Assembly (NCBI GenBank): GCA_963678065.2
Contig: CAXXVZ010000003.1
Coordinates: forward strand, 1,504,001 to 1,568,000
Source: Treponemataceae bacterium
GTDB taxonomy: Bacteria; Spirochaetota; Spirochaetia; Treponematales; Rectinemataceae
Direction of reading: 5' to 3'
Length of the DNA: 64,000 nucleotides
Shown here: piece after piece, positions 1-12,094 of the stretch
Layout: the number at the start of each line of letters is the position of its first letter
How positions within the stretch are numbered: the first letter of the stretch is position 1
The notes under the pieces: generated by a model
What the model was told of the DNA's origin: nothing
Seen by the model: only the letters and a program-made list of their open reading frames with translations
The model's database searches: none
Program-made: the position numbers and the translations under genes

Positions 1-335
1 CATCGCGGCCCTGGTCGCCGGGTAGGATGCTGCAACACCCTGAGGATTGCCAGGCACACCTCACACAGCATTGGGATCGATGCTTTCTCAAACCCTTGGA
101 CGAAGATCTGGCTGGTTATGAGCCCGCTCTTCAAATGCGTGTATGCACAGTCAAACTGAAAAGAACAGACACCTCTTTAAATAAAGAAATGCTTATAATA
201 GTAAGCAAAATGTATATTACAATAAAGAAATATAGTATTTCAAAAACAACAAACAAGGATACATAATCGTTTTAGGCAAAGTGCAAACGAACATTGTTTT
301 AGTGGGCCGACAATATCTGTCTACCGGGAGGGAAA

Positions 336-1112
336 ATGCCGTATCGGCGATGGTATTCACTCGTCTTGGCCATCATCTTGGTATCCTTTTTTTCCTGCTC
401 TCAGACCTTTCTTCCGACTGAAGAAGAGTGCGGAACCATAAGTATAGAAATGCCGCCCCTTGCTCCATGGTTAGGCGATAAAAAAACCCCCGCCCTATCG
501 GAAGAACGACAACCAGAAAACATGGATGATTCCGCGCGGGCATGGATGGTAGCGTCCAGCGTCAAGTTCGATCTCTACTCCGGATCCTCCATTGCGCTGT
601 CATGGACCTTCAATCCGGCGTCACCCGGCTGGGGTTCCGGAACTGGAGTAGGGACCTCCACAAAAACTGGAATACCATCAGGGACATACACCAAGCTTGT
701 TGCCTCCATATTCAATAATAATGTGTCAACCTCCACTCCCGTGGTAAGTGGAGAAGTACTGTCGGTCACGGTAAATCCTGGTTCCACCACAACGCGTACC
801 ATTACGTGTTTTCCGGTTAGTTCCGTATTCATCGGAACGTCCGGAACGTATTCGTCGACATACAGTCTGGTCACACGTGCGGAAAAATGGTTCCGAGTGG
901 AATCCCCTTATTCCAATACAAGATTTTATGTGAATTCCGTATCCGGCGACATGGATATCTACATCTTCGGGCCGGATGGCTCGTTGCTAGGATCGCAAGC
1001 GTCTAGTGGAACCGGAGAATCATCCGTCGTCCTCTCTACTCCTTCAAATCCCTACTATGTGGTCATGTTCGCCTATTCGGGCGGTTCGGGAAAAATAAAA
1101 TTCTCAAACTGA
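336..1112 (+). CDS. Lipoprotein, two beta-sandwich domains (C-terminal PPC-like); putative pilin-like subunit 1
   Basis: GGAGGG SD; lipobox FFSC; Ser/Thr/Gly-rich beta sequence; DMDIYIFGPDG resembles pre-peptidase C-terminal (PPC) domain; clear paralog of next ORF. Confidence 0.8.
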   Translation: MPYRRWYSLVLAIILVSFFSCSQTFLPTEEECGTISIEMPPLAPWLGDKKTPALSEERQPENMDDSARAWMVASSVKFDLYSGSSIALSWTFNPASPGWGSGTGVGTSTKTGIPSGTYTKLVASIFNNNVSTSTPVVSGEVLSVTVNPGSTTTRTITCFPVSSVFIGTSGTYSSTYSLVTRAEKWFRVESPYSNTRFYVNSVSGDMDIYIFGPDGSLLGSQASSGTGESSVVLSTPSNPYYVVMFAYSGGSGKIKFSN

Positions 1113-1163
1113 TATGACCCCCTCGGTGGGTTGTATATAGACCGTCGTCATTAGGAGGATGCT

Positions 1164-1958
1164 GTGAAAAAGGTATGCATTCTGTTGTGTGCTGTACTGA
1201 TGGTTTTCGCAGGATGTGACATGCTGGGACTCAAAGAGAAAGAAGAAACAGGATCGATCACGTTTTCGATCAGTCCATTCGCTCCATGGCTCATGATGAA
1301 AACGGCCGGGAGCGAATCCCGGGGATTGGACAGTACAGAAGAATCCAAAGCCTGGATGGCCGCGACGAGTGTCAGACTCGACCTGTATTCCGGAACCTCG
1401 ATCGTGAGGACTTGGACTTTCACCAATTCATCCCCCGGCTGGGGGACAGGCACAGGAACTGTCGGTACGTCTACACAGTCCGGTATCCCGGTCGGAACCT
1501 ATACAAAGCTTGTGGCTTCCGTTTTCAATTCATATACCTCAACGACGACGCCTGTTGTTACCGGTGAAGTTACAAATGTAACAGTCAATGTCAGTGCAAC
1601 CACGAATCTGACAATCACCTGTTTCCCCGTCAGCCCTGCCAGCCTGTCTGAAGGCAGCTACTCTTCCGCATTCAGCTTGGTGCAGTACGCAGAAAAATGG
1701 TTTGTGGCAAGTACCTCCACAAACAGTACAAAATTCTATTGCAAATCAAATTCGGGTGATACGGATATATATGTTTTCAAACCCGATGGGACCTTGCTGG
1801 GTGCTTCGACTGCCACGACGACCGATGAGTATGTAACTCTCGACACACCTTCCAATCCATATTACATCGCCGCTTTCGCGGTAGCCGGCGGCAACGCTCA
1901 AGTGAAATTCATCGCGAATACTCCGGATACAGGTACGATCGGCGTAACAGTGAAGTAA
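1164..1958 (+). CDS. Lipoprotein paralog of 336..1112 with extra C-terminal strand; putative pilin-like subunit 2
   Basis: AGGAGG SD, GTG start; lipobox FAGC; shared blocks APWL, AWM.A.SV, DLYSG, SPGWG.GTG, GTYTKLVAS, EKWF, TPSNPYY. Confidence 0.85.
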   Translation: MKKVCILLCAVLMVFAGCDMLGLKEKEETGSITFSISPFAPWLMMKTAGSESRGLDSTEESKAWMAATSVRLDLYSGTSIVRTWTFTNSSPGWGTGTGTVGTSTQSGIPVGTYTKLVASVFNSYTSTTTPVVTGEVTNVTVNVSATTNLTITCFPVSPASLSEGSYSSAFSLVQYAEKWFVASTSTNSTKFYCKSNSGDTDIYVFKPDGTLLGASTATTTDEYVTLDTPSNPYYIAAFAVAGGNAQVKFIANTPDTGTIGVTVK

Positions 1959-1963
1959 ATAAT

Positions 1964-2037
1964 GGAAACCGCATGACAGGCCTCGAGCCTGCCGTGCGGT
2001 TTTCCTGAAGTCTCCGGAAAGACCGCATGAGGCAGGC
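1964..2037. repeat. Three-part inverted repeat (A, A-reverse, A) able to form alternative hairpins
   Basis: GGAAACCGCATGACAGGC (1964-1981), GCCTGCCGTGCGGTTTTCC (1987-2005), GGAAAGACCGCATGAGGCAGGC (2016-2037). Confidence 0.7.
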
Positions 2038-2074
2038 CGATTGGCAGTTCCATGGAGCATGAAAAAGGATCCAT

Positions 2075-2812
2075 ATGAAAAAGCTTGGTTTACGTCGGAA
2101 ATGGGTCATTCTTTCCGTTGTAGTTATCCCTCTACTAGTCTCGTGCGATTTCCTGATTGGCCTTACGAAATCTCAGGATAAAGGCCGTATCGTAGTATCA
2201 CTGTCTTCCGATATGCACGGTCGAACGATTTCACCGCCAACCGATCTCATCGTTGTCGCATACGATATTGATGGATCGGGTCCCTCAGGAAATTCGTTTC
2301 ACTATGAAAATGCAAGCGGTTCGCTCTTCACTCGCGAGGATGTAGCCGTAGGCACCTGGAGCATCACGGCGAGAGGAAAAAACGCGGCAGGAGGCGAAAT
2401 CACACGTGGTACGGTATCGCTGTCCGTATCACCCGGAACGACGGCAACAGCCACTCTGCTGTGTACACCGATCTCTGGTGCCGGAACGCTGCAACTCTCT
2501 CTTTCTTGGCCTGCCGGTACGCTACCCTCACCGTATGCAGAAGCGACAGTAACCTCGTCTGCCGGAGCGGTTCGGAATATCACGTTCTCGATCGCGGGAA
2601 CAACCGCCTCTTGGTCTGCAGACGATCTTCAGAATGGTTATTACACGCTGGGCGTCAAATTGAGGACTTCGGGCGCGGGAAGTTCTGTGGCATGGTCGAG
2701 GACGGAGACTGTTCTGATTCTGTCCGGATCGGTGACGACTGGCTCGTGGGCACTCGCAGAATCTGATCTCGACCTTCCCGAAGAAGGTGTAATCGGCGTG
2801 ACAATACAATGA
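2075..2812 (+). CDS. Lipoprotein, two Ig/transthyretin-like domains; putative pilin-like subunit 3
   Basis: AAGGA SD; lipobox LVSC; paralogous to N-terminal ~250 aa of next ORF (GSGPSG, WSI.A.GKNAAG.EI, LSWP.GT, NG.YTL, WS.TETVLI). Confidence 0.8.
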   Translation: MKKLGLRRKWVILSVVVIPLLVSCDFLIGLTKSQDKGRIVVSLSSDMHGRTISPPTDLIVVAYDIDGSGPSGNSFHYENASGSLFTREDVAVGTWSITARGKNAAGGEITRGTVSLSVSPGTTATATLLCTPISGAGTLQLSLSWPAGTLPSPYAEATVTSSAGAVRNITFSIAGTTASWSADDLQNGYYTLGVKLRTSGAGSSVAWSRTETVLILSGSVTTGSWALAESDLDLPEEGVIGVTIQ

Positions 2813-2850
2813 TGTCACGGTGTATCGGCCGAATCGATGATGGAGAAATT

Positions 2851-5466
2851 ATGAGAACTAGGCCTGCTTCGAAGTGTCTTGTTTTTTTGGCTGCGCTCAT
2901 CGCGATGGGGTTCTTCTCGGGCTGTCCGATTCTCTCGAGTCTGATTCCAAAACCGGAAACGGGTACTCTGGATTTCAGCATCGCGGACGGCTCCGGTTCG
3001 AAGACACTCGACCCTGGTATAGACAGAACGGTCGCAAAATTTACTGTGACAGGGTCGGGCCCCTCCGGAGCTTCGTTCGCGCTGACCGACATTGCCGGTG
3101 GTGCTCATTCCAAAGGCGATCTTGCTGCGGGGGCTTGGTCGATTCGTGCGACAGGGAAGAATGCGGCGGGAGATGAGATTGTCGAAGACTCCGAGAATAT
3201 CACCATAACGGCGGGCAGTAGTACGGCAGTAACGCTGAACTGCCTTCCTATTACCGGGAACGGTGCACTATCTCTCGAACTGTCGTGGCCGATCGGTACA
3301 ATAGGCAATCCCGCAATCGATGCAAAGCTCACATCCCCTTCCGGAAGCGTACAGACGGTAGCGATGAGTATCTCCGGCACCGCCGCAACTGGAACGCGGT
3401 CCGGAATCGCGAATGGATTCTACACCCTGAGCATCAAATTGAAGGATATGGCGTACGATGGGCATCTCTCCTGGTCGAAGACAGAAACGGTGCTTATCAT
3501 GGCCGGAAAGACGACAACCGGCCGATGGGTCCTGACCGGGTCCGACCTCTCCCTTATCTCCACGGGTGGCATCTCGATCGGCATTACGAGCGACTCGAAG
3601 CAACCTATCGCAGTGAGTCTTTCGGGTACTGTACCGACCATCGATCCTGCAAGCCCTGTTACCGTGACTGCATCAGGTGTTCCGACGCCCGACTCATGGC
3701 AATGGTATCTGGATGGAGACCGGATGACCGGGCAGACCTCAGCCTCGATAACCATTGGTTCGAGTTTCGCTTCGGGCATGCACTCGCTCGATGTCATCGC
3801 AAAAAAAGGCGAGGTCTTTGGATCTTCCGGATTCCGTTTCCGGATCGGCTCGGGCTCGGTCCCGACAGGTTTCGCCTATACTCCTGCGACGCCGGTCTAC
3901 AAGGTTGATTTCGCCGGGCAGTCATCGAAAACGATAAGCGTCTCGGGAGCAGCCGGAAAGGCCCTGTATATGGTCAAGACGAATGCATCTTCATCCGCGG
4001 TGGCGGCATCGGATACCGGCGCGGCTCCGAGTGCCTCTTCCGGATATGCATCCAGAGAAAACATACCAGTAATGCTGACAAGGTTTCCTGATAAACCATA
4101 CAGGATCGATCATGCCGAAGCGACGAGATTCAACGAGAATCCGCCTCCGATTCTAAACCGAAGAGAGATCATGATTCCGGGAGCGAATCCGGTGATTCAT
4201 TACGGCGCAGGAGATCCTGCGTACACGGTCGATTCGACGATCAAGAATTTCTGGGTGGAAAATGCGAGCGGGGGATGGATCAGCATACCGGCAACCCTCA
4301 GAGCGATAGGCAGCTACTGCTACATCTGGGTCGCGAATGACAATTTCGCCAACTCTTCGACCGTCGCGAACGACAACAAGCTCACTTCCTCACAGATATC
4401 TTTCCTGAAGGAGAAGTTCGACGGTACACCGGCATCATCGTACAACAACGGAATATTCAAGAATGTGACGGGCATCTTTGGGTATGAATTCGGTGGTGGA
4501 GCTTCAGGAGGCGGGGGAAGAGACGCCGACCAGCACGTTGCAATCCTTGTATATGACATAGACTATGATTATTCGCCCTCTCAGAACAGCGGTGTCGTCG
4601 GGTATTTCTGGTCCAAGGATTATTTTTCTCAGGAAGAGCTTGCAGGCTGGGGATATTCGATCAAGACGAATTATTCCGAGATATGCTATATCGACTCGCA
4701 CTTCTCCGACAGGTATACAAACTACATCGTTTCCACGCTCGCCCATGAATATCAGCACATGATCAACTTCAACGAGAAGAGTGTGAAATGGGATCGGGAT
4801 TCTCCGGCATGGTCCAACGAAATGTGCTCGATGGTGGCGGAGGACCTGACCCTCGCAAACGTCGGCCTCGACCCAGCCGTGTATGGCGCACAGGATAGAC
4901 TTCCCGGATTCACCTATCACTACGCCGAATCCGGAGTCATCGACTGGTTGCCTGGATACGATGTAATGAAGAGCTATGCCGGAGCTTTCGCGTTCGGCGC
5001 TTATCTTGAGCGAAACTACGGCGGCGCGGATCTCTTCTCCCGCATCGCATTGAATAACTCCGTAGGACAGGCATCTATTACGGCAGCGCTGTCATCTGCC
5101 GGTTATTCCGAGACCTTCGAGACGGCTTTCAAAAAATATGGAGAAGCCCTGGTCTTCACGGACAGACCCGCCGGATCGAGCGTAAAAACCCTAAAAACCG
5201 GAGACACCAGCACCGTCGGAGGCATTTCCTATACCGTTGCTCCGATCGATCTCGCCACTATCCAGAACTACGATCTCGCATCGTCGAGATGGGTGCCCGG
5301 ATCCTTCGGAACGCGAATCTACGACATGGGCACTGCGGTTTCGCTACGGCCATTCGGATGCTCCATCCACTCGGGGGCTTCGTGGCAATCGCTTCCCGCG
5401 ACCGCATCCATCACCCTGAATGCCCCGACCGACACCAGTGTAGCGATGTACTTGATGGTCAAGTGA
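2851..5466 (+). CDS. Lipoprotein with N-terminal beta-sandwich domains and C-terminal peptidase M30 (hyicolysin-like) zinc metalloprotease
   Basis: GGAG SD before ATG 2851; lipobox FSGC; STLAHEYQHMINF zinc motif plus downstream W.NE; GVVGYFWSKD motif. Confidence 0.85.
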   Translation: MRTRPASKCLVFLAALIAMGFFSGCPILSSLIPKPETGTLDFSIADGSGSKTLDPGIDRTVAKFTVTGSGPSGASFALTDIAGGAHSKGDLAAGAWSIRATGKNAAGDEIVEDSENITITAGSSTAVTLNCLPITGNGALSLELSWPIGTIGNPAIDAKLTSPSGSVQTVAMSISGTAATGTRSGIANGFYTLSIKLKDMAYDGHLSWSKTETVLIMAGKTTTGRWVLTGSDLSLISTGGISIGITSDSKQPIAVSLSGTVPTIDPASPVTVTASGVPTPDSWQWYLDGDRMTGQTSASITIGSSFASGMHSLDVIAKKGEVFGSSGFRFRIGSGSVPTGFAYTPATPVYKVDFAGQSSKTISVSGAAGKALYMVKTNASSSAVAASDTGAAPSASSGYASRENIPVMLTRFPDKPYRIDHAEATRFNENPPPILNRREIMIPGANPVIHYGAGDPAYTVDSTIKNFWVENASGGWISIPATLRAIGSYCYIWVANDNFANSSTVANDNKLTSSQISFLKEKFDGTPASSYNNGIFKNVTGIFGYEFGGGASGGGGRDADQHVAILVYDIDYDYSPSQNSGVVGYFWSKDYFSQEELAGWGYSIKTNYSEICYIDSHFSDRYTNYIVSTLAHEYQHMINFNEKSVKWDRDSPAWSNEMCSMVAEDLTLANVGLDPAVYGAQDRLPGFTYHYAESGVIDWLPGYDVMKSYAGAFAFGAYLERNYGGADLFSRIALNNSVGQASITAALSSAGYSETFETAFKKYGEALVFTDRPAGSSVKTLKTGDTSTVGGISYTVAPIDLATIQNYDLASSRWVPGSFGTRIYDMGTAVSLRPFGCSIHSGASWQSLPATASITLNAPTDTSVAMYLMVK

Positions 5467-5777
5467 TCCCGCGGAGGAGTTTCCGTTCTCGGGTCATAAT
5501 ACTGTTTTTCAAGGAGTTGCAGGCTTAGGGAGAGAAGGAGCTTTCAGTCAAGCATATTGAGGAAGATAAAGGGGTATTCAGTGGGTGACGCTCATCGGAG
5601 CCCATGTCTCCTCGAAGACTGATGAACTCGTATGGGTGGGTACTCTGAGCGCTGCTGGCCCGGTGGACAACACATCGACATCAAGTTTTCTCGACGTGTT
5701 GGCCGCCGGTCTCTGATCAACTGCAACTGTGCTCCGTCCGGATAGGCCGGAACATTCTGAAAGGATACAGGAAAATT

Positions 5778-6929
5778 ATGAATAATTCGATTCGGTTTAA
5801 AATCGCGCTGGAGCGCTCCATTTTTTCAGCAATAGCAATAATCATTTTTCCCCTTTCGTTTGTGAGCTGTGACATGATCACCGGAGTAATGAATCCCCAC
5901 TCGACCACTACCACAAGTACGACAACTACGACCAGCACAACCACAACAATTCCAATCGTACATGCAACCGGTGCAGTCTGGCATGATTTTGATGATTATT
6001 CTCCAAAACCAAGCATGTGGACCGAGTCTTCCCTCTCGCTGTTGCCGCCGCCGTCCAGTATCCCTGGGTATGGGTGGGCATTCGATACCCATTTTTCATC
6101 TTCTGAAACCATAATTGTCGGCTTCAATACGGTTAACAATGGAGGCTACTGGCAGGATGGTGTATGGGTTTCGTTGGGCGACTTCTCTGTCATACCGAAC
6201 GGCGGTTCATTGAATGGACCTTACTGTGCTGTTGCCGCTTCTGAGATATATTTTGTCGGCCGAAAAGGTACAGGCGAAGGCGGTTATTTCAGAAATGCTG
6301 CTTGGCATTCGCTACCAACACTGCCGGGCACAATATCCGTCTCACCTTTAGGCGTTGTTCTCGTTGGAAGCGATCTGTACATCTCTGGCAATTGCTTTGA
6401 TGAAAGGGGAATGAAACATCCCTGTTATTGGAAAAACGATTCGGTTCATAGGCTGCCGGTCCTGGCTGATGCAAAAGAATCAAGTGCAGGAAGTATCTTT
6501 ATTGCAGATGGTATAATTTACAGTGCAGGCTGGCATCGTATTGAAGGTGAAATTATTGAAGTCGGTTATTGGAAGAATAACACCTGGATAAAAATGGACA
6601 GACAGACGAACCAAGTCGATTTTGAGACTTCGTCAATAGCTGTCTCCAGAGGTAAAGTATATCTGGGCATCTCAAGTCAAAGTCTCGTAAGTGGTGGATG
6701 TGGATATTTTGAGGACTCCTTCTGGAATCCATTGTCGATGAATGATGGGAAAATCCCCCATCTCATGTCGCTTTCGGTTTTCGGCAGCGATGTATATGTC
6801 GCCGGGTGCTACATCTCGGATGATTTCGCATCCGCGCTGCCGGGGTATTGGAAAAACAGAGAGTGGCACGAAGCTGTTTGTCCGGAAGAGTATCCTTTTG
6901 GTATAGTGTGCTCAGTCTCGTTGAAATAA
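5778..6929 (+). CDS. Lipoprotein with Thr-rich linker and repeated GYWKN-type beta-propeller
   Basis: Lipobox FVSC; STTTTSTTTTTSTTTT linker; six G/C-Y-W/F-x-N/D repeats. Confidence 0.75.
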   Translation: MNNSIRFKIALERSIFSAIAIIIFPLSFVSCDMITGVMNPHSTTTTSTTTTTSTTTTIPIVHATGAVWHDFDDYSPKPSMWTESSLSLLPPPSSIPGYGWAFDTHFSSSETIIVGFNTVNNGGYWQDGVWVSLGDFSVIPNGGSLNGPYCAVAASEIYFVGRKGTGEGGYFRNAAWHSLPTLPGTISVSPLGVVLVGSDLYISGNCFDERGMKHPCYWKNDSVHRLPVLADAKESSAGSIFIADGIIYSAGWHRIEGEIIEVGYWKNNTWIKMDRQTNQVDFETSSIAVSRGKVYLGISSQSLVSGGCGYFEDSFWNPLSMNDGKIPHLMSLSVFGSDVYVAGCYISDDFASALPGYWKNREWHEAVCPEEYPFGIVCSVSLK

Positions 6930-6931
6930 CT

Positions 6932-6972
6932 GCCTTCCGCGTGCTGCCACGCGGAAGGCTTCTGTCGTTTTT
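6932..6972 (+). terminator. Intrinsic terminator
   Basis: 12-bp stem GCCTTCCGCGTG/CACGCGGAAGGC, 4-nt loop, T-rich tail, right after stop codon. Confidence 0.75.
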
Positions 6973-7045
6973 GATCGGATTGTGATAGAAATTGTCAGGA
7001 GAGACGCACCTTAGTCCCGCACTTTTGGCACTTCCAGTGCCCGAC

Positions 7046-7495
7046 TTATTCTTTTCCTGGCGGTAGTCCCTTCCCTTCCGAAAAGAAGCTCACTCCTATA
7101 ATCCCCGCGATCAGTCCAACGATTTCCGGTATGATGCCGAATTCAAACCGGAATCCGACCTCCTTGAGTGGGATTTTCTCTCCCATGAAATCGATTCCCG
7201 ATGATTCGGCGTACACGTATGACACGACTATCGTTCCGATTGCGATGATACCACCCCACGAAAAAAGATCTTTCCGCTCATACAGTTTTTTTGTGCTGTT
7301 GAAATAGAAAAATGCCACGGTGAGAAAAACAGCAATTGCAAGAACTATCCACAACACAGGGAATCGGTTCGAGAGTTGCACTCCGGAATATCGCTCGAGA
7401 GTCTGCCCTGAGCATTGTATGCCAGCCCAGGGAAGGGAAAATGATATTACGGCGATTCCAAAACCGGCAGGACTGATGAATTTTTTGTTTTCCAT
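7046..7495 (-). CDS. Hypothetical membrane protein (about 4 TM segments)
   Basis: GAGG SD; hydrophobic segments; FSLPW motif near N-terminus. Confidence 0.7.
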   Translation of the reverse strand: MENKKFISPAGFGIAVISFSLPWAGIQCSGQTLERYSGVQLSNRFPVLWIVLAIAVFLTVAFFYFNSTKKLYERKDLFSWGGIIAIGTIVVSYVYAESSGIDFMGEKIPLKEVGFRFEFGIIPEIVGLIAGIIGVSFFSEGKGLPPGKE

Positions 7496-7615
7496 GGTAT
7501 CCTCGGTAATACATACACTGCGTATAAAAGTGATGCAGCCGTTGATGGAGACTCAATGGCTGCATCATTATGAAAAATTGGATCAATCGTTTTTGAATAC
7601 ACATCGTGTGGCATG

Positions 7616-8449
7616 TCAGATATCCCGTGTAACCTTCTGTACTTTAAAGATGAACTCTCCTTTTTTGAGAATGGTATTGGCTTGATCGACCTGAACGGGA
7701 ACCTCGAAAATCCCGAGAGTCCCTTTTTCAAGATAGGTCACCTTATTGCTGACGCTGTCATAGGCAACTCCCCCATCGAAGAATGCGAAGCCCTTGAAAG
7801 TCTCTCCTGGAAGAATGAATGAATCAGGGTCGTTGATCACCTTGAATTTCTTGTTCATCCCATATTTGGTCATCGCAAGACCATTGTAGATATTCATATA
7901 GACTTTCCAGGGGGTAACTGTCGGTATCAGCTTGGTCCTGTGCTTGATGATCTCCGCTTCAGCTGCGTTATTCATGAAATCGAATGTTCCCTGCTTGTCA
8001 AGACTGGTGAAGCGCTCCCCATCGGGCGTGATGAATCCGGCCCGGAGATCACGCATCTGGATTGTCCCTTTAGTATTGTTCGTGATAGAGATCTTGAATG
8101 TGTTCAGTCCGGCAGAGATCGGGAAAAAATAGTATTTCTTGTTGTTGTAAAAAAACATGTCCTGCATCCAGTATTGATAGACATTGTCACGCTTCATCTG
8201 CGCTTCGAGCTTGTCCTGGGGAATGCCGAGCATGGCTTCGAGATCGCTGTCCGCAAAGAAACGTTTCCAGCTATCGGTGGCAACATATTTTGCCGTAATG
8301 GTCACACCGTCGACGGTTATCGATGCGACCTCGCCAGAATCGAATTCATAGGTTTCGACTTTTTGTGGGACAACAGGCTTTGTGGCACACGATGCGAGGA
8401 GGACGACAAAAAAAAGCGAAAAAATGCAGATCCGTGCAGCACGTTTCAT
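7616..8449 (-). CDS. Hypothetical lipoprotein
   Basis: GAGGT SD before ATG 8449; lipobox LASC. Confidence 0.75.
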   Translation of the reverse strand: MKRAARICIFSLFFVVLLASCATKPVVPQKVETYEFDSGEVASITVDGVTITAKYVATDSWKRFFADSDLEAMLGIPQDKLEAQMKRDNVYQYWMQDMFFYNNKKYYFFPISAGLNTFKISITNNTKGTIQMRDLRAGFITPDGERFTSLDKQGTFDFMNNAAEAEIIKHRTKLIPTVTPWKVYMNIYNGLAMTKYGMNKKFKVINDPDSFILPGETFKGFAFFDGGVAYDSVSNKVTYLEKGTLGIFEVPVQVDQANTILKKGEFIFKVQKVTRDI

Positions 8450-8501
8450 TGAGTGTACCTCTTTATGGTGGGAATTGGGTCTGATCATGGTATCAAGCCG
8501 A

Positions 8502-8924
8502 TTATTCGGTCATCTTTGTGAATGTGAATTTGGTCTTCCCGATGCTTCCGCCCGCATTCATGGCAAGCGTAAGGGTCGAACCAACGATCTTCGCTTCATA
8601 GGGATATGTACTGTAAAGGGTATTCTGAAGGGAGAACACCATACCGAGGTTCGTAATCGTGACTTTGTTTTTCTCAACCGAGTATTTGAAATTGTCAGTA
8701 AAGAGATCATTCTTGGCCACCGCGGAACCGTCGGCATTAAATGTATATTTCTCGGGAGAAGTTGTTGGTAGCGTCGTTTTCTCGCTGTCTATTTCATATT
8801 CCACCAGTTTCCACGTACCGGTGATGTCGATATCCTTCGTCAGCCCCAAGAGATCACAGCCAGTAATGGCAAGACAGCCAAAAAGAAAAAAGAAAATTCT
8901 CCAAAATTTGATGTCGTTTTTCAT
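8502..8924 (-). CDS. Lipocalin-like (DUF5004-type) lipoprotein
   Basis: AAGGAGG SD; lipobox ITGC; ITGTWKLV and YTFNADGS motifs. Confidence 0.75.
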   Translation of the reverse strand: MKNDIKFWRIFFFLFGCLAITGCDLLGLTKDIDITGTWKLVEYEIDSEKTTLPTTSPEKYTFNADGSAVAKNDLFTDNFKYSVEKNKVTITNLGMVFSLQNTLYSTYPYEAKIVGSTLTLAMNAGGSIGKTKFTFTKMTE

Positions 8925-9295
8925 GTATTCCTCCTTGTGATGGTGTGAATGCAGCGAAACCACAGTCGTGAAACGGCTTTTCCGTCCTCCTTCAATAGTC
9001 AGATATCAATCGATTGGTGATATCGATAGTGCAAGTATTTAATACCGTGCCTCGTAGTGAGTGGTATCGGTGAAGATGGAATAGTGAACGGCCTGTATGG
9101 GAAGTGTCATAGGAAAATCTTTACATACCCCGGACACGTGTCACAGGTGTACAAGGAAGGGCATCGGCAGGCAGACGGAAATCTACATACGAAGTAATAA
9201 AAAAAGGTAATCATGGTTTCTTTTGAATCACGACCGCAGTACAATCGGAATGAGCATTTCGCAATCCGATGTCAGGTAGTCGTAAGGGAAAATCC

Positions 9296-12094
9296 ATGGT
9301 GAAATCAATCAAAACCGTGCATGAGCTTATAAACGAAGGCCGCATCCTCATCGAGGCGCGAAAATTCAGGGATGCCCACTTGTGCTTCATGGAGGCACGG
9401 GAGCGGGCGCTATCCGATACGGAGAGGGCGTATGCGGTGCTGGGCGTGGAAGAATGTGAACTGCACCTTCGCCTCGCAGTGGAGGACGGAGGGGAAGAAC
9501 TCGAATCGGCTCTTTCTGTTTTCACAGAGCGGGGAGACCATAAGGCTGAAGCTTGGGCACATATCTGCCTCGGAATCAGGAAACAGGCCACGCAAGATCT
9601 TGTCGGAGTGATAGATCTGCTCGAGGCAGGCCGCGCTGCCGCATGTGCGGGGAATGACAGGGAGGCGGAGGCAAGGGCACTTCTCGACATCGCCGCCATC
9701 CTCACTTTCAGGCGGCTTCCAGGCGATGCGGATCGCATGATGAAAGCCTTTGAACGCGGCTACGATCTGGCCGCGAAAGGTGACGCCTATGAGAGGACTG
9801 TTTCCGAAGCCGCACGGGGCATAGTCCGGTACACCTCCGGAGATCTCGCAAGCTCGGCCTCCGGTTACAGAGCCGCCACGGAAGGCTTCTCGAGCCTCGG
9901 CATGCCGGAGCAGGCCCTCGAGACCTCCGTTGCCCTTGGCGTGACCCTCCTGCGATCAGGCGCACGAGAGGAGGCGGAGCGGACCTTCCGGAAAACCGCG
10001 GAACTTGGGAGCTCACTCGACAGGAACATCGAGACGGGCGTGGCGCTCATGTACCTCGGACAGATGGCGGAGGGTTCCGGGCGCTTTTCCGAGGCATTCT
10101 CAAACTATTCCAGAGCAGAAGATAAATTGGCAAACGAGAACCACTACGGGGCGACGTTGAGGCTCGGACAGGCGCGCGCGCTGTGCGCCATGGGGCGATA
10201 CGCCGAAGTTGCCGGCAAACTCGATAGCGTCGCAGGATCGGCGACCGCGGCCGCCCGGATCTCGATTCCCATGATTCGGGCCATGGCGCTGTCGGGCGCC
10301 GGAAAGTACACGCAGGCGATTCGCGAGGCCGATATCGCGGTTGAGGAAGCCTCGGTTCAGGGAATGCCCCGACAGGAGGCCGAAGCCCGCGCCGTCCGTA
10401 TGGATTGCCTCCAAGCCTGCGGCGATTCAGTACGCGGCATGATGGACGCGGATGCCATTCTGGGCGTTCTTTCCGGATCCGCCCCGGCAACGACCCGGAG
10501 CGCCGCTCTGAGAGTCCGGGCCTCTGCATTCAGGACGAACGGAGATGTTGAATCAGCGATAGATCTCGCGAAAAAAGCCTGCTCCCTGCTTGTGGATGTG
10601 GATGCCCCGCTCGAATACGCGAGGGATAGCGCCGAACTCGGGCGCGCGCTTGCGGATTCCGGAGACAGCGAAGGGGCGGGAGAGGCCTTCCGCGTGGCCT
10701 GCACACGGGTTATGGAGGTGCGAAAAGATGCGCCTGAGTCCTATCGCCGGGATTTTCTCGATTCCATCCAGGAAATTTTCGCGGAACGCATCCGTTTTCT
10801 CGTGGACTCTGGCGATACTGCGGCGGCGTACAGAGAAGCTCTGCGCCTTCTTGCGCGCACCATGACCGAGCGTTTTGGCCTTACCGGAGAAGAAGAAGCC
10901 CCTGATCCCGGAACGAAGGCCGAGTTTGTCTTCCTGCCCTTGGGAAAGCGCTTCGCAACATTTGTCCGGACTGCGCGGGGATTGACCGCACGACTCATCG
11001 ATTCTGCCGAACTACTAGCGCTGGGTCCTACTGTGGCTACCATGTCCGATCACGGGGCTTTCAGGGGATTTTCGATCAAACAAACGGAAAAATCGCGAGA
11101 AACGATCGATCAGATTGCGGAAGCTGTTGCGCAATTCCGGGAAGCCCTGAGGATGAGAAAGACAAATATACCTGCTCTCGCCGCGGGCTTGTATGAAAAA
11201 CTTATCGCGCCTGCGGAATTTATCGCGGCAGACTGCCCAGTCTGGGTGATTTGCCCAGGGGGGGCATTCGCGGGTTTCCCGTTCGAAGCTCTTGAAGATT
11301 CCTTCGGCAAACGCATCATCGAACACAGGGAAATAGTCTACACAAAATCACCGCTGTTGGCATGCCGTGCGGAATCCGTACATGCAAACTCCGTACATGG
11401 GGCGGTTCTCGCCGTCGGAGACCCTTTGTCCGATGTGCATTCTGCGGCGAAGCCGCTAGAAGCGAAGGATACTGAAGCCGGTGGAGACTTTCCGACAGCG
11501 GCGGCGCGATTCATCGAACGGGCAGCGGATGCGGGACTCCCTCCCTTGCCTGGAGCGGCCCGAGAAGCAGAGGCCGCGTGCATGGGTGCGACCAAGTCAG
11601 AATTGCTCATTGGAGCCAACGCGACCAAGCGGCATTTCCTCGATTGCCTTCGTTCCGGGGAATGGGATACCCTCCACATTGCTGCCCACGCGCTTTACGC
11701 GGAATCGGGTAAGGAGGGAGCTATCCTCTTTCATCCGGATGGGGACAATATTTTGTCCACTCAGGAAATAGCCTCATTGTCGATCAACGTGCGGAGAGTC
11801 GTGCTATCTGCCTGCGCTTCCGCTTTGGGAAAGCCGTCCTGGAGCGAGGGGGCTTTCGGGCTCGTTGGAGCCTTCTTGGAGGCAGGGGCCAAAACGGTCT
11901 ACGCAACCCTCTGGCGCGTGCGCGACCTCCAAACAGCGGGATTCATGGAAAGGATGTACACGCTGGCTCGGGAATCGGGGCTCGGATTCGACGATGCATT
12001 TGCCGAATGCAAAAGACTGGCGGCATCCGGGGTGTGGGGGGCCGAATACGCTGATCCTGCGCTCTGGGCATCCTTCGTCCGTTATGGATTGTGA
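9296..12094 (+). CDS. TPR-repeat CHAT-domain caspase-like protease (clan CD)
   Basis: Long Ala-rich TPR-like helical N-terminus; C-terminal CHAT motifs FPFEAL, LPGAAREA, LHIAAH (His), VVLSAC (Cys), TLWRVRD, PALWASF; no signal peptide; start could be 9269. Confidence 0.9.
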   Translation: MVKSIKTVHELINEGRILIEARKFRDAHLCFMEARERALSDTERAYAVLGVEECELHLRLAVEDGGEELESALSVFTERGDHKAEAWAHICLGIRKQATQDLVGVIDLLEAGRAAACAGNDREAEARALLDIAAILTFRRLPGDADRMMKAFERGYDLAAKGDAYERTVSEAARGIVRYTSGDLASSASGYRAATEGFSSLGMPEQALETSVALGVTLLRSGAREEAERTFRKTAELGSSLDRNIETGVALMYLGQMAEGSGRFSEAFSNYSRAEDKLANENHYGATLRLGQARALCAMGRYAEVAGKLDSVAGSATAAARISIPMIRAMALSGAGKYTQAIREADIAVEEASVQGMPRQEAEARAVRMDCLQACGDSVRGMMDADAILGVLSGSAPATTRSAALRVRASAFRTNGDVESAIDLAKKACSLLVDVDAPLEYARDSAELGRALADSGDSEGAGEAFRVACTRVMEVRKDAPESYRRDFLDSIQEIFAERIRFLVDSGDTAAAYREALRLLARTMTERFGLTGEEEAPDPGTKAEFVFLPLGKRFATFVRTARGLTARLIDSAELLALGPTVATMSDHGAFRGFSIKQTEKSRETIDQIAEAVAQFREALRMRKTNIPALAAGLYEKLIAPAEFIAADCPVWVICPGGAFAGFPFEALEDSFGKRIIEHREIVYTKSPLLACRAESVHANSVHGAVLAVGDPLSDVHSAAKPLEAKDTEAGGDFPTAAARFIERAADAGLPPLPGAAREAEAACMGATKSELLIGANATKRHFLDCLRSGEWDTLHIAAHALYAESGKEGAILFHPDGDNILSTQEIASLSINVRRVVLSACASALGKPSWSEGAFGLVGAFLEAGAKTVYATLWRVRDLQTAGFMERMYTLARESGLGFDDAFAECKRLAASGVWGAEYADPALWASFVRYGL

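Follow-up and report, generated by a model that had tools for sequence, protein, structure and literature searches.

The 64,000-nucleotide window analysed here comprises positions 1,504,001 to 1,568,000 of contig CAXXVZ010000003.1 (contig 3 of the source genome, Treponemataceae bacterium assembly GCA_963678065.2), and feature coordinates are numbered from its start. The ribosomal protein L2 of the source genome finds its best match in PDB 8fmw, a Borrelia ribosome, which makes a spirochaete host likely. Four co-oriented lipoprotein open reading frames (ORFs), here called s1 to s4, lie on the + strand of the window, and their products probably form a surface chain that assembles by protease-triggered donor-strand exchange, in a type V-like manner and outside the type V family itself. 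This strand-exchange logic is supported because an Arg/Lys site is conserved among homologues, the C-terminal tail is free in a structural model, the fold is partly common to Bacteroidia pilins, gene order in relatives is in keeping with it, and a spare, donor-like strand tracks the first strand (A1) of the same protein. The type V-like polymer originally predicted for this locus is thus supported in part, with s4 cast in the wrong role.

In the proposed mechanism, each subunit would be exported on a predicted lipid anchor. A cut after the conserved Arg or Lys would release A1 and the lipid attached to it, the T-[IL]-x-P segment remaining docked on domain 2; a donor strand projecting from the far end of one subunit would then occupy the A1 groove in its neighbour. 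The extenders would be s2 and s3, and the cap s1. s4 would be a cargo-bearing extender, in which the immunoglobulin (Ig)-like domain after an internal strand would lie along domain 2 of the acceptor, leaving the M30 peptidase suspended from the chain. Attachment to the membrane would depend on the final subunit that escapes cutting, or else on an anchor lipoprotein whose gene lies at another site. Short chains of 2–4 subunits may form in place of long pili, and their likely purpose would be to keep hydrolases and binding domains at a distance from the cell surface.

Four lipoproteins with one N-terminal layout

All four proteins show the features first described for them, namely a lipobox Cys, a first strand and a basic site, the latter at R68, K62, R50 and K51 in s1 to s4, respectively. 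Signal and lipobox are recognised by sequence, and lipidation is accordingly a prediction. s1 (336–1112, +; 258 aa) has its lipobox Cys21 at nt 396, strand A1 at aa 33–39 (432–452; sequence and alignment of s1/s2-type proteins) and a predicted cleavage motif S-A-R↓A-W at 531–545, with R68 as the P1 residue; in a six-row alignment of s1/s2-type proteins, S-[KR]-A is kept in all five rows that cover the motif. An acceptor domain and a PPC-like domain follow, without a donor tail, and s1 is likely a cap or terminator. s2 (1164–1958, +; 264 aa, GTG start) has lipobox Cys18 (nt 1215), a predicted motif S-K↓A-W with P1 K62 (1344–1355) and the same two domains, and ends in a donor-like strand (aa 257–264; 1932–1955) recognised in its sequence and by the tail pattern counted below; it is likely a shaft or adaptor subunit. 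The two proteins are 51% identical, and s1 ends where the linker and tail begin in s2, its stop ahead of the tail having been noted before; no read-through or frameshifted tail was found in any of the three frames beyond its stop.

s3 (2075–2812, +; 245 aa), likewise a likely shaft or adaptor subunit, carries lipobox Cys24 (nt 2144), A1 at aa 37–43, P1 R50 within a predicted motif G-R↓T-I-S-P (2219–2236) that is largely conserved among 146 homologues, two transthyretin-like domains and a free C-terminal donor-like strand (aa 238–245; 2786–2809). Both C-terminal strands said to mimic A1, those of s2 and s3, are therefore present. s4 (2851–5466, +) comprises 871 aa counted from an ATG preceded by a purine-rich stretch resembling a ribosome-binding site. 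It has lipobox Cys25 (nt 2923), a predicted motif S-K↓T-L-D-P with P1 K51 (2998–3015; like that of s2, read from the sequence) and a two-domain acceptor module. An internal donor-like strand, GGISIGIT (aa 239–246; 3565–3588), is homologous to the s3 tail by sequence and family alignment, and an Ig-like domain (aa 252–333; 3604–3849; PF06832, E 1e-5, just under the cut-off) is predicted from a coupling patch to pack against domain 2 of that module. The cargo is an M30 zinc peptidase (PF10460, 39 bits against a cut-off of 25.8; PDB 7bb8, E 2e-10) with its HExxH motif at aa 632–636 (4744–4758); by Pfam cut-off and motif it is a member of the hyicolysin/lugdulysin-like M30 family, from which it differs in being fused behind a lipoprotein assembly module. 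Since s4 keeps a donor-like strand and an Ig domain, it is not a plain tip. The proposed division into donors (s2 and s3) and terminal subunits (s1 and s4) would thus hold for s2 and s3 as extenders and for s1 as the sole pure cap; s4 does continue into cargo as described, but it is not donor-less.

s3 and s4 are 38% identical over the two-domain module, and the s1/s2 and s3/s4 pairs represent two subfamilies that are weakly joined by profile comparison (probability 80%, E 1.4e-5). The predicted s1/s2 build is one beta-sandwich plus the PPC-like domain (PF04151, E 2e-4 on s1, below the cut-off).

The basic site, the spare strand and gene order in relatives

A 35-row profile of the s3 module retrieved 7,024 sequence clusters at E 1e-3 and 990 at E 1e-30; the homologue statistics derive from the 146 best hits (150 minus four repeat proteins; among them are s3 itself and a protein nearly identical to s4). 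Signal and lipobox were recognised in 140 of the 150. P1 is Arg in 55% and Lys in 34% of the 146 (89% together), followed by Thr (73%), Ile or Leu (95%) and Pro (96%), so the conservation of the basic site that had been proposed as a check is borne out. The linker described ahead of this residue is long in s1 and s2, and the loop varies widely in length across their family. In s3 and s4 the linker is short: in 140 of the 146 hits, P1 follows 12–15 residues after the Gly that opens A1, and the predicted local distance difference test score (pLDDT) here is ~79 in the s3 model. Acceptor modules in which P1 is not clearly basic, or in which the motif after it is altered, lie upstream of an intact acceptor-plus-unit gene at L031:180-2429 and L032:5971-8268, and are possibly uncleavable variants.

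The s3/s4 module is present in 90 of 151 genomes of the order, with up to 19 matches per genome, and in 25 of 151 genomes at phylum level; the s1/s2 type is rarer (11/151). No Pfam family covers the module in the 35 members examined. Elsewhere, a scan of genome contigs gave a single weak Calditrichota match, a plasmid scan for the module gave none, word-based protein searches returned s3 itself or unrelated giant Ig proteins and nothing further, and the ESM Atlas yielded only unnamed or low-score clusters. Source-genome paralogs lie at C5:543410-545779, C2:330719-332293, C5:96828-97739 and C3:309048-309776; they comprise two further M30-type peptidase lipoproteins, of which one carries the module and the other CHB_HEX in its place, an s1 paralog lacking the tail, and a module joined to long repeat-like cargo. 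Homologues P0008, P0009 and P0012 carry tandem module copies, with a strand directly after the Cys.

The spare strand takes different positions in the two subfamilies. In s1/s2-family arrays of other genomes, 12 of 21 genes have a C-terminus of the form G-x-h-x-h-x-h, compared with 1/145 s3-type hits, 21/5,098 source-genome ORFs and 86/8,868 pseudo-termini in the same proteins; the 21 genes were hand-picked and the pattern was fixed after their ends had been seen, with short spurious ORFs and open or N-broken genes left out. The tail ends all four ~280-aa s2-like genes of other genomes (L104, L105, L108 and L109) and is missing from s1 and from its source-genome paralog. As a bare tail it also ends unrelated architectures (FN3, PKD, PPC), including lipoproteins without an acceptor module, and in the source genome it is found in 4 of 329 predicted lipoproteins versus 46 of 17,319 other ORFs (p 0.014). 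In the s3/s4 family, the strand is internal in 106 of the 146 hits, directly before an Ig domain in 94 of these. Conservation of the tail in homologues, also proposed as a check, is consequently seen at the C-terminus in the s1/s2 arrays, whereas the s3/s4 family mostly holds the strand internally.

A position-specific scoring matrix (PSSM) of s3-type A1 strands gives the internal strands good scores (median 7.0 versus −2.0 bits; n=130). The same matrix scores s1/s2-family tails poorly (1/20 at ≥6 bits), and for this reason the tail count rests on the simpler pattern. At the inward positions, the spare strand resembles the A1 of its own protein more than that of shuffled partners (7.72 versus 7.20 ± 0.13; 0/5,000 shuffles in 126 proteins, the shuffles ignoring kinship), while no such excess is seen towards the strand that opens domain 2, the homologue of A1 (6.29 versus 6.73). 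At L100, one tail matches, by eye, the A1 of the following gene, which is unusual in lacking Gly.

Gene order was read in 104 loci chosen around acceptor genes; this choice biases adjacency but not the asymmetry between upstream and downstream, and related loci are not independent. Forty-four genes in these loci have the Ig unit but no acceptor module and are referred to as donor-only. A lipobox is present in 37 of them, and in 37 the unit lies ≤17 residues from the C-terminus. They stand directly upstream of an acceptor in 40 cases and downstream in 3. Among the unit-less acceptors with an upstream donor gene, P1 is Arg or Lys in 40 of 41, the remaining one being a gap. The order anchor, acceptor with unit, acceptor-only is found at L112, L113, L160, L172 and L180, and also at L100–L103.

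Lipoproteins encoded at L034:11347-14058 (−) and L134:8625-10472 (−) lack an acceptor module, carry six and three strand-plus-Ig units, respectively, and lie upstream of large acceptor-cargo genes; they are possible multi-socket scaffolds. Minimal lipoproteins with little beyond Cys, strand and Ig domain are encoded directly upstream of an acceptor at L036:7676-8083 (−) and L125:7142-7735 (+). A 317-aa source-genome protein on C5 (L004) was considered as an anchor and not accepted, as it matches just half of an Ig domain and a strand is not clearly recognisable in it.

Predicted fold and known systems

An AlphaFold2 (AF2) model of s3, built on a 144-row alignment, has a pLDDT of 92 and a predicted template modelling score (pTM) of 0.78 and consists of two seven-stranded transthyretin-like domains. 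A1 forms the first strand of domain 1, and R50 lies in a loop. Burial of the C-terminal strand in its own domain had been named as evidence against the original prediction; in the model, the last 17 residues, which form the tail, are unpaired (pLDDT 66–70). The best single-domain match of domain 1 is 4q1z (Z 10.0 over 89 residues, root-mean-square deviation (rmsd) 3.4), and Bacteroidia pilins align across both domains (Z 7.7–8.6, rmsd 8.5–9.3), for example, 4qdg (Z 8.6 over 183 residues) and Mfa2 (Z 7.8 over 174 residues, rmsd 8.5). The modelled fold is compatible with type V pilins without being diagnostic of them.

The coupling analysis (effective sequence number, Neff, 144–183) links L53 to T222 at z 9–11, which would dock the T-[IL]-x-P segment on domain 2. 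A further patch connects domain 2 with the Ig domain at z 5–7.4 (K210-S312, 7.4; S209-D314, 6.0; K196-D290, 5.5), in an orientation that would place the start of the Ig at the junction of domains 1 and 2, where a strand lying along the A1 groove would end.

Type V pili are called unique to Bacteroidia, and protease-triggered strand exchange is established for FimA and Mfa1 (PMC13655056). The Porphyromonas gingivalis pili (FimA/FimB/FimC-E; Mfa1-5) share with the present system a lipoprotein precursor, an anchor strand with an Arg/Lys site in the loop behind it, a donor or donor-like strand, two transthyretin-like domains (in s3 and s4) and, as far as gene order in relatives goes, an anchor/stalk/tip logic (PMC13655056). 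The present system differs in its spirochaete host and in its donor. In s3 and s4 this is a single 8-residue strand, free in the s3 model, whereas the C-terminal donor strands of type V pilins are described as self-complemented in the groove of the C-terminal domain (CTD) and as spanning both domains. In addition, the donor is often internal (in s4 and most homologues) and followed by a docking Ig and cargo, s1 and s2 have one transthyretin-like domain plus PPC, and the clostripain-type (C11) protease was not found in the source genome. A search for the gingipain type (C25) found none either, there or in any control genome. No fimbrillin or type V pilin Pfam family is among the matches of s1–s4 or of the 35 module members, and no pilin is among the 18 weak PDB profile matches of the module. 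We infer that the s1–s4 system works like a type V pilus while standing outside the type V pilin families.

Among Bacteroides lipoproteins, those that begin with a transthyretin-like domain (BT_1938, DUF4876, 4q1z; BT_0210, 4ecn; DUF4493) provide the best single-domain structural matches, at a sequence identity of 9–13%, and DUF4493 matches s1 weakly (E 0.004). We know of no donor-strand role for these proteins. Chaperone-usher pili share the principle of donor-strand complementation of an incomplete beta-sandwich (PMC9046445). They differ in that the donor is an N-terminal extension, that assembly needs both a chaperone and an usher, and that neither a lipoprotein precursor nor a protease trigger is involved. 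A comparable spirochaete system was not found in open-licence PMC and bioRxiv literature.

Competing readings, the surrounding locus and wider meaning

Several observations weigh against strand exchange triggered by a protease. C11 and S8 proteases were not found in the source genome, in searches that did detect their controls; three trypsin-family genes were found there. P1 is Gln, Met, Asn or another residue in ~11% of the 146 hits, and it couples to core positions and may thus be structural. The strict strand pattern occurs in just 14–18 of the 44 donor-only genes, against a background of 8–10%, and an upstream donor gene is missing for 46 of the 87 unit-less acceptors. Such a donor precedes 41/87 unit-less and 12/38 unit-bearing acceptors, which is no clear excess (p 0.12), and the s1–s4 locus itself has no donor-only anchor gene. 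Coupling between the spare strand and the A1 groove is weak (z ≤4.7) and, like the patch between domain 2 and the Ig, fits a fold-back within one chain too. The structural match is also less than specific: pilins do align over both domains, as the proposed fold comparison anticipated, but a Gram-positive surface protein aligns to s3 at Z 9.0, single transthyretin-like, FN3 and CnaB domains score equally, and Foldseek ranks 4ecn (E 3.6e-8) and 4gpv first, with TMq ≤0.38.

Some of these observations would fit an assembly in trans without cleavage, in which the strand-plus-Ig unit docks on domain 2 of a neighbour by edge-strand addition, all lipoproteins keep their lipid, and R/K-T-I-x-P is a structural clamp. 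The domain 2–Ig patch, the strong L53–T222 coupling (as a sign that the T-I-x-P segment is structural), the adjacency of donor-only and acceptor genes and the missing C11 and S8 proteases all speak for it. Yet the s1/s2 type retains A1, the basic site and bare tails without having domain 2 or the Ig, the spare strand tracks A1 and not the first strand of domain 2, and members of the s1/s2 family differ widely in how long the loop ahead of the basic residue is; on balance, we consider such docking unlikely.

We regard as improbable that these are plain surface lipoproteins that stay monomeric and have stalks of the Ig/transthyretin type, the strand being part of the following Ig in cis and the s3 tail the stump of a truncated s4-like duplicate. 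The frequent placement of the strand directly before an Ig (94/146), its near absence from the ends of s3-type hits (1/145), the tandem strand-plus-Ig repeats inside proteins such as that of L034, and the fact that domains of this kind usually begin with a G-x-L-x-L strand agree with this reading. However, the Ig of s4, as read from its sequence, has a full strand set without the extra strand, the s3 stop is reached without a frameshift in a ~97% identical strain, many unrelated architectures end in bare tails, and the asymmetry of 40 upstream against 3 downstream donor-only genes requires a cause. That a cut after Arg/Lys simply sheds cargo from the membrane, with no reassembly, is very improbable: a conserved basic site close to the lipid anchor and the many acceptor genes without an upstream donor would suit it, but, judged from the AF2 model, domain 1 would lose a core strand to the cut and be left with a groove, and the tails and gene order would be left unexplained.

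Regarding the locus itself, the ~97% identical strain spans nearly all of nt 250–3600 with no coding frameshifts; among the 40 of 124 differences listed, 11 of the 16 in s1 are synonymous. A hairpin between s2 and s3 (1959–2075, +) folds at −46.6 kcal/mol (z −3.6; 0/200 shuffles fold as well), and its sequence occurs once in the source genome; it might determine how much of the upstream subunits is made relative to the downstream ones, and could protect the upstream mRNA. Promoter and terminator scans at the locus gave results near chance level. The four genes sit in a stretch of GC 0.46–0.56 (contig, 0.59), immediately preceded by a long gene for a DinG-like helicase, as read by eye. The lower-GC stretch at 150–9000 encodes many exported proteins, among them a lipocalin-like lipoprotein (8502–8963, −), and looks like an acquired island. 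A 383-aa lipoprotein at 5778–6929, whose linker is Thr-rich and which gives a weak Kelch-like match, was rejected as part of the s1–s4 locus, as it lacks the module. Farther on, a TPR-CHAT protease gene (9269–12094; PF12770, E 6e-44), in which no signal peptide was seen, adjoins two response regulator-like genes.

Returning to protease-triggered strand exchange, we tentatively raise the possibility, which we hold less firmly than the reading of s1–s4 itself, that spirochaetes possess a widespread type V-like plug-and-socket surface system. In such a system, an internal donor and a docking Ig would let enzyme and adhesin subunits polymerise into decorated fibres, and multi-unit anchors, such as the six-unit protein of L034, would be cellulosome-like scaffolds that capture protease-matured enzymes. 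If true, the type V assembly principle would extend to spirochaetes through a family of ~7,000 clusters without a Pfam model, a large class of hypothetical lipoproteins would be explained, and the internal donor with its docking Ig would represent a new design, with cargo along the chain and multi-socket scaffolds.

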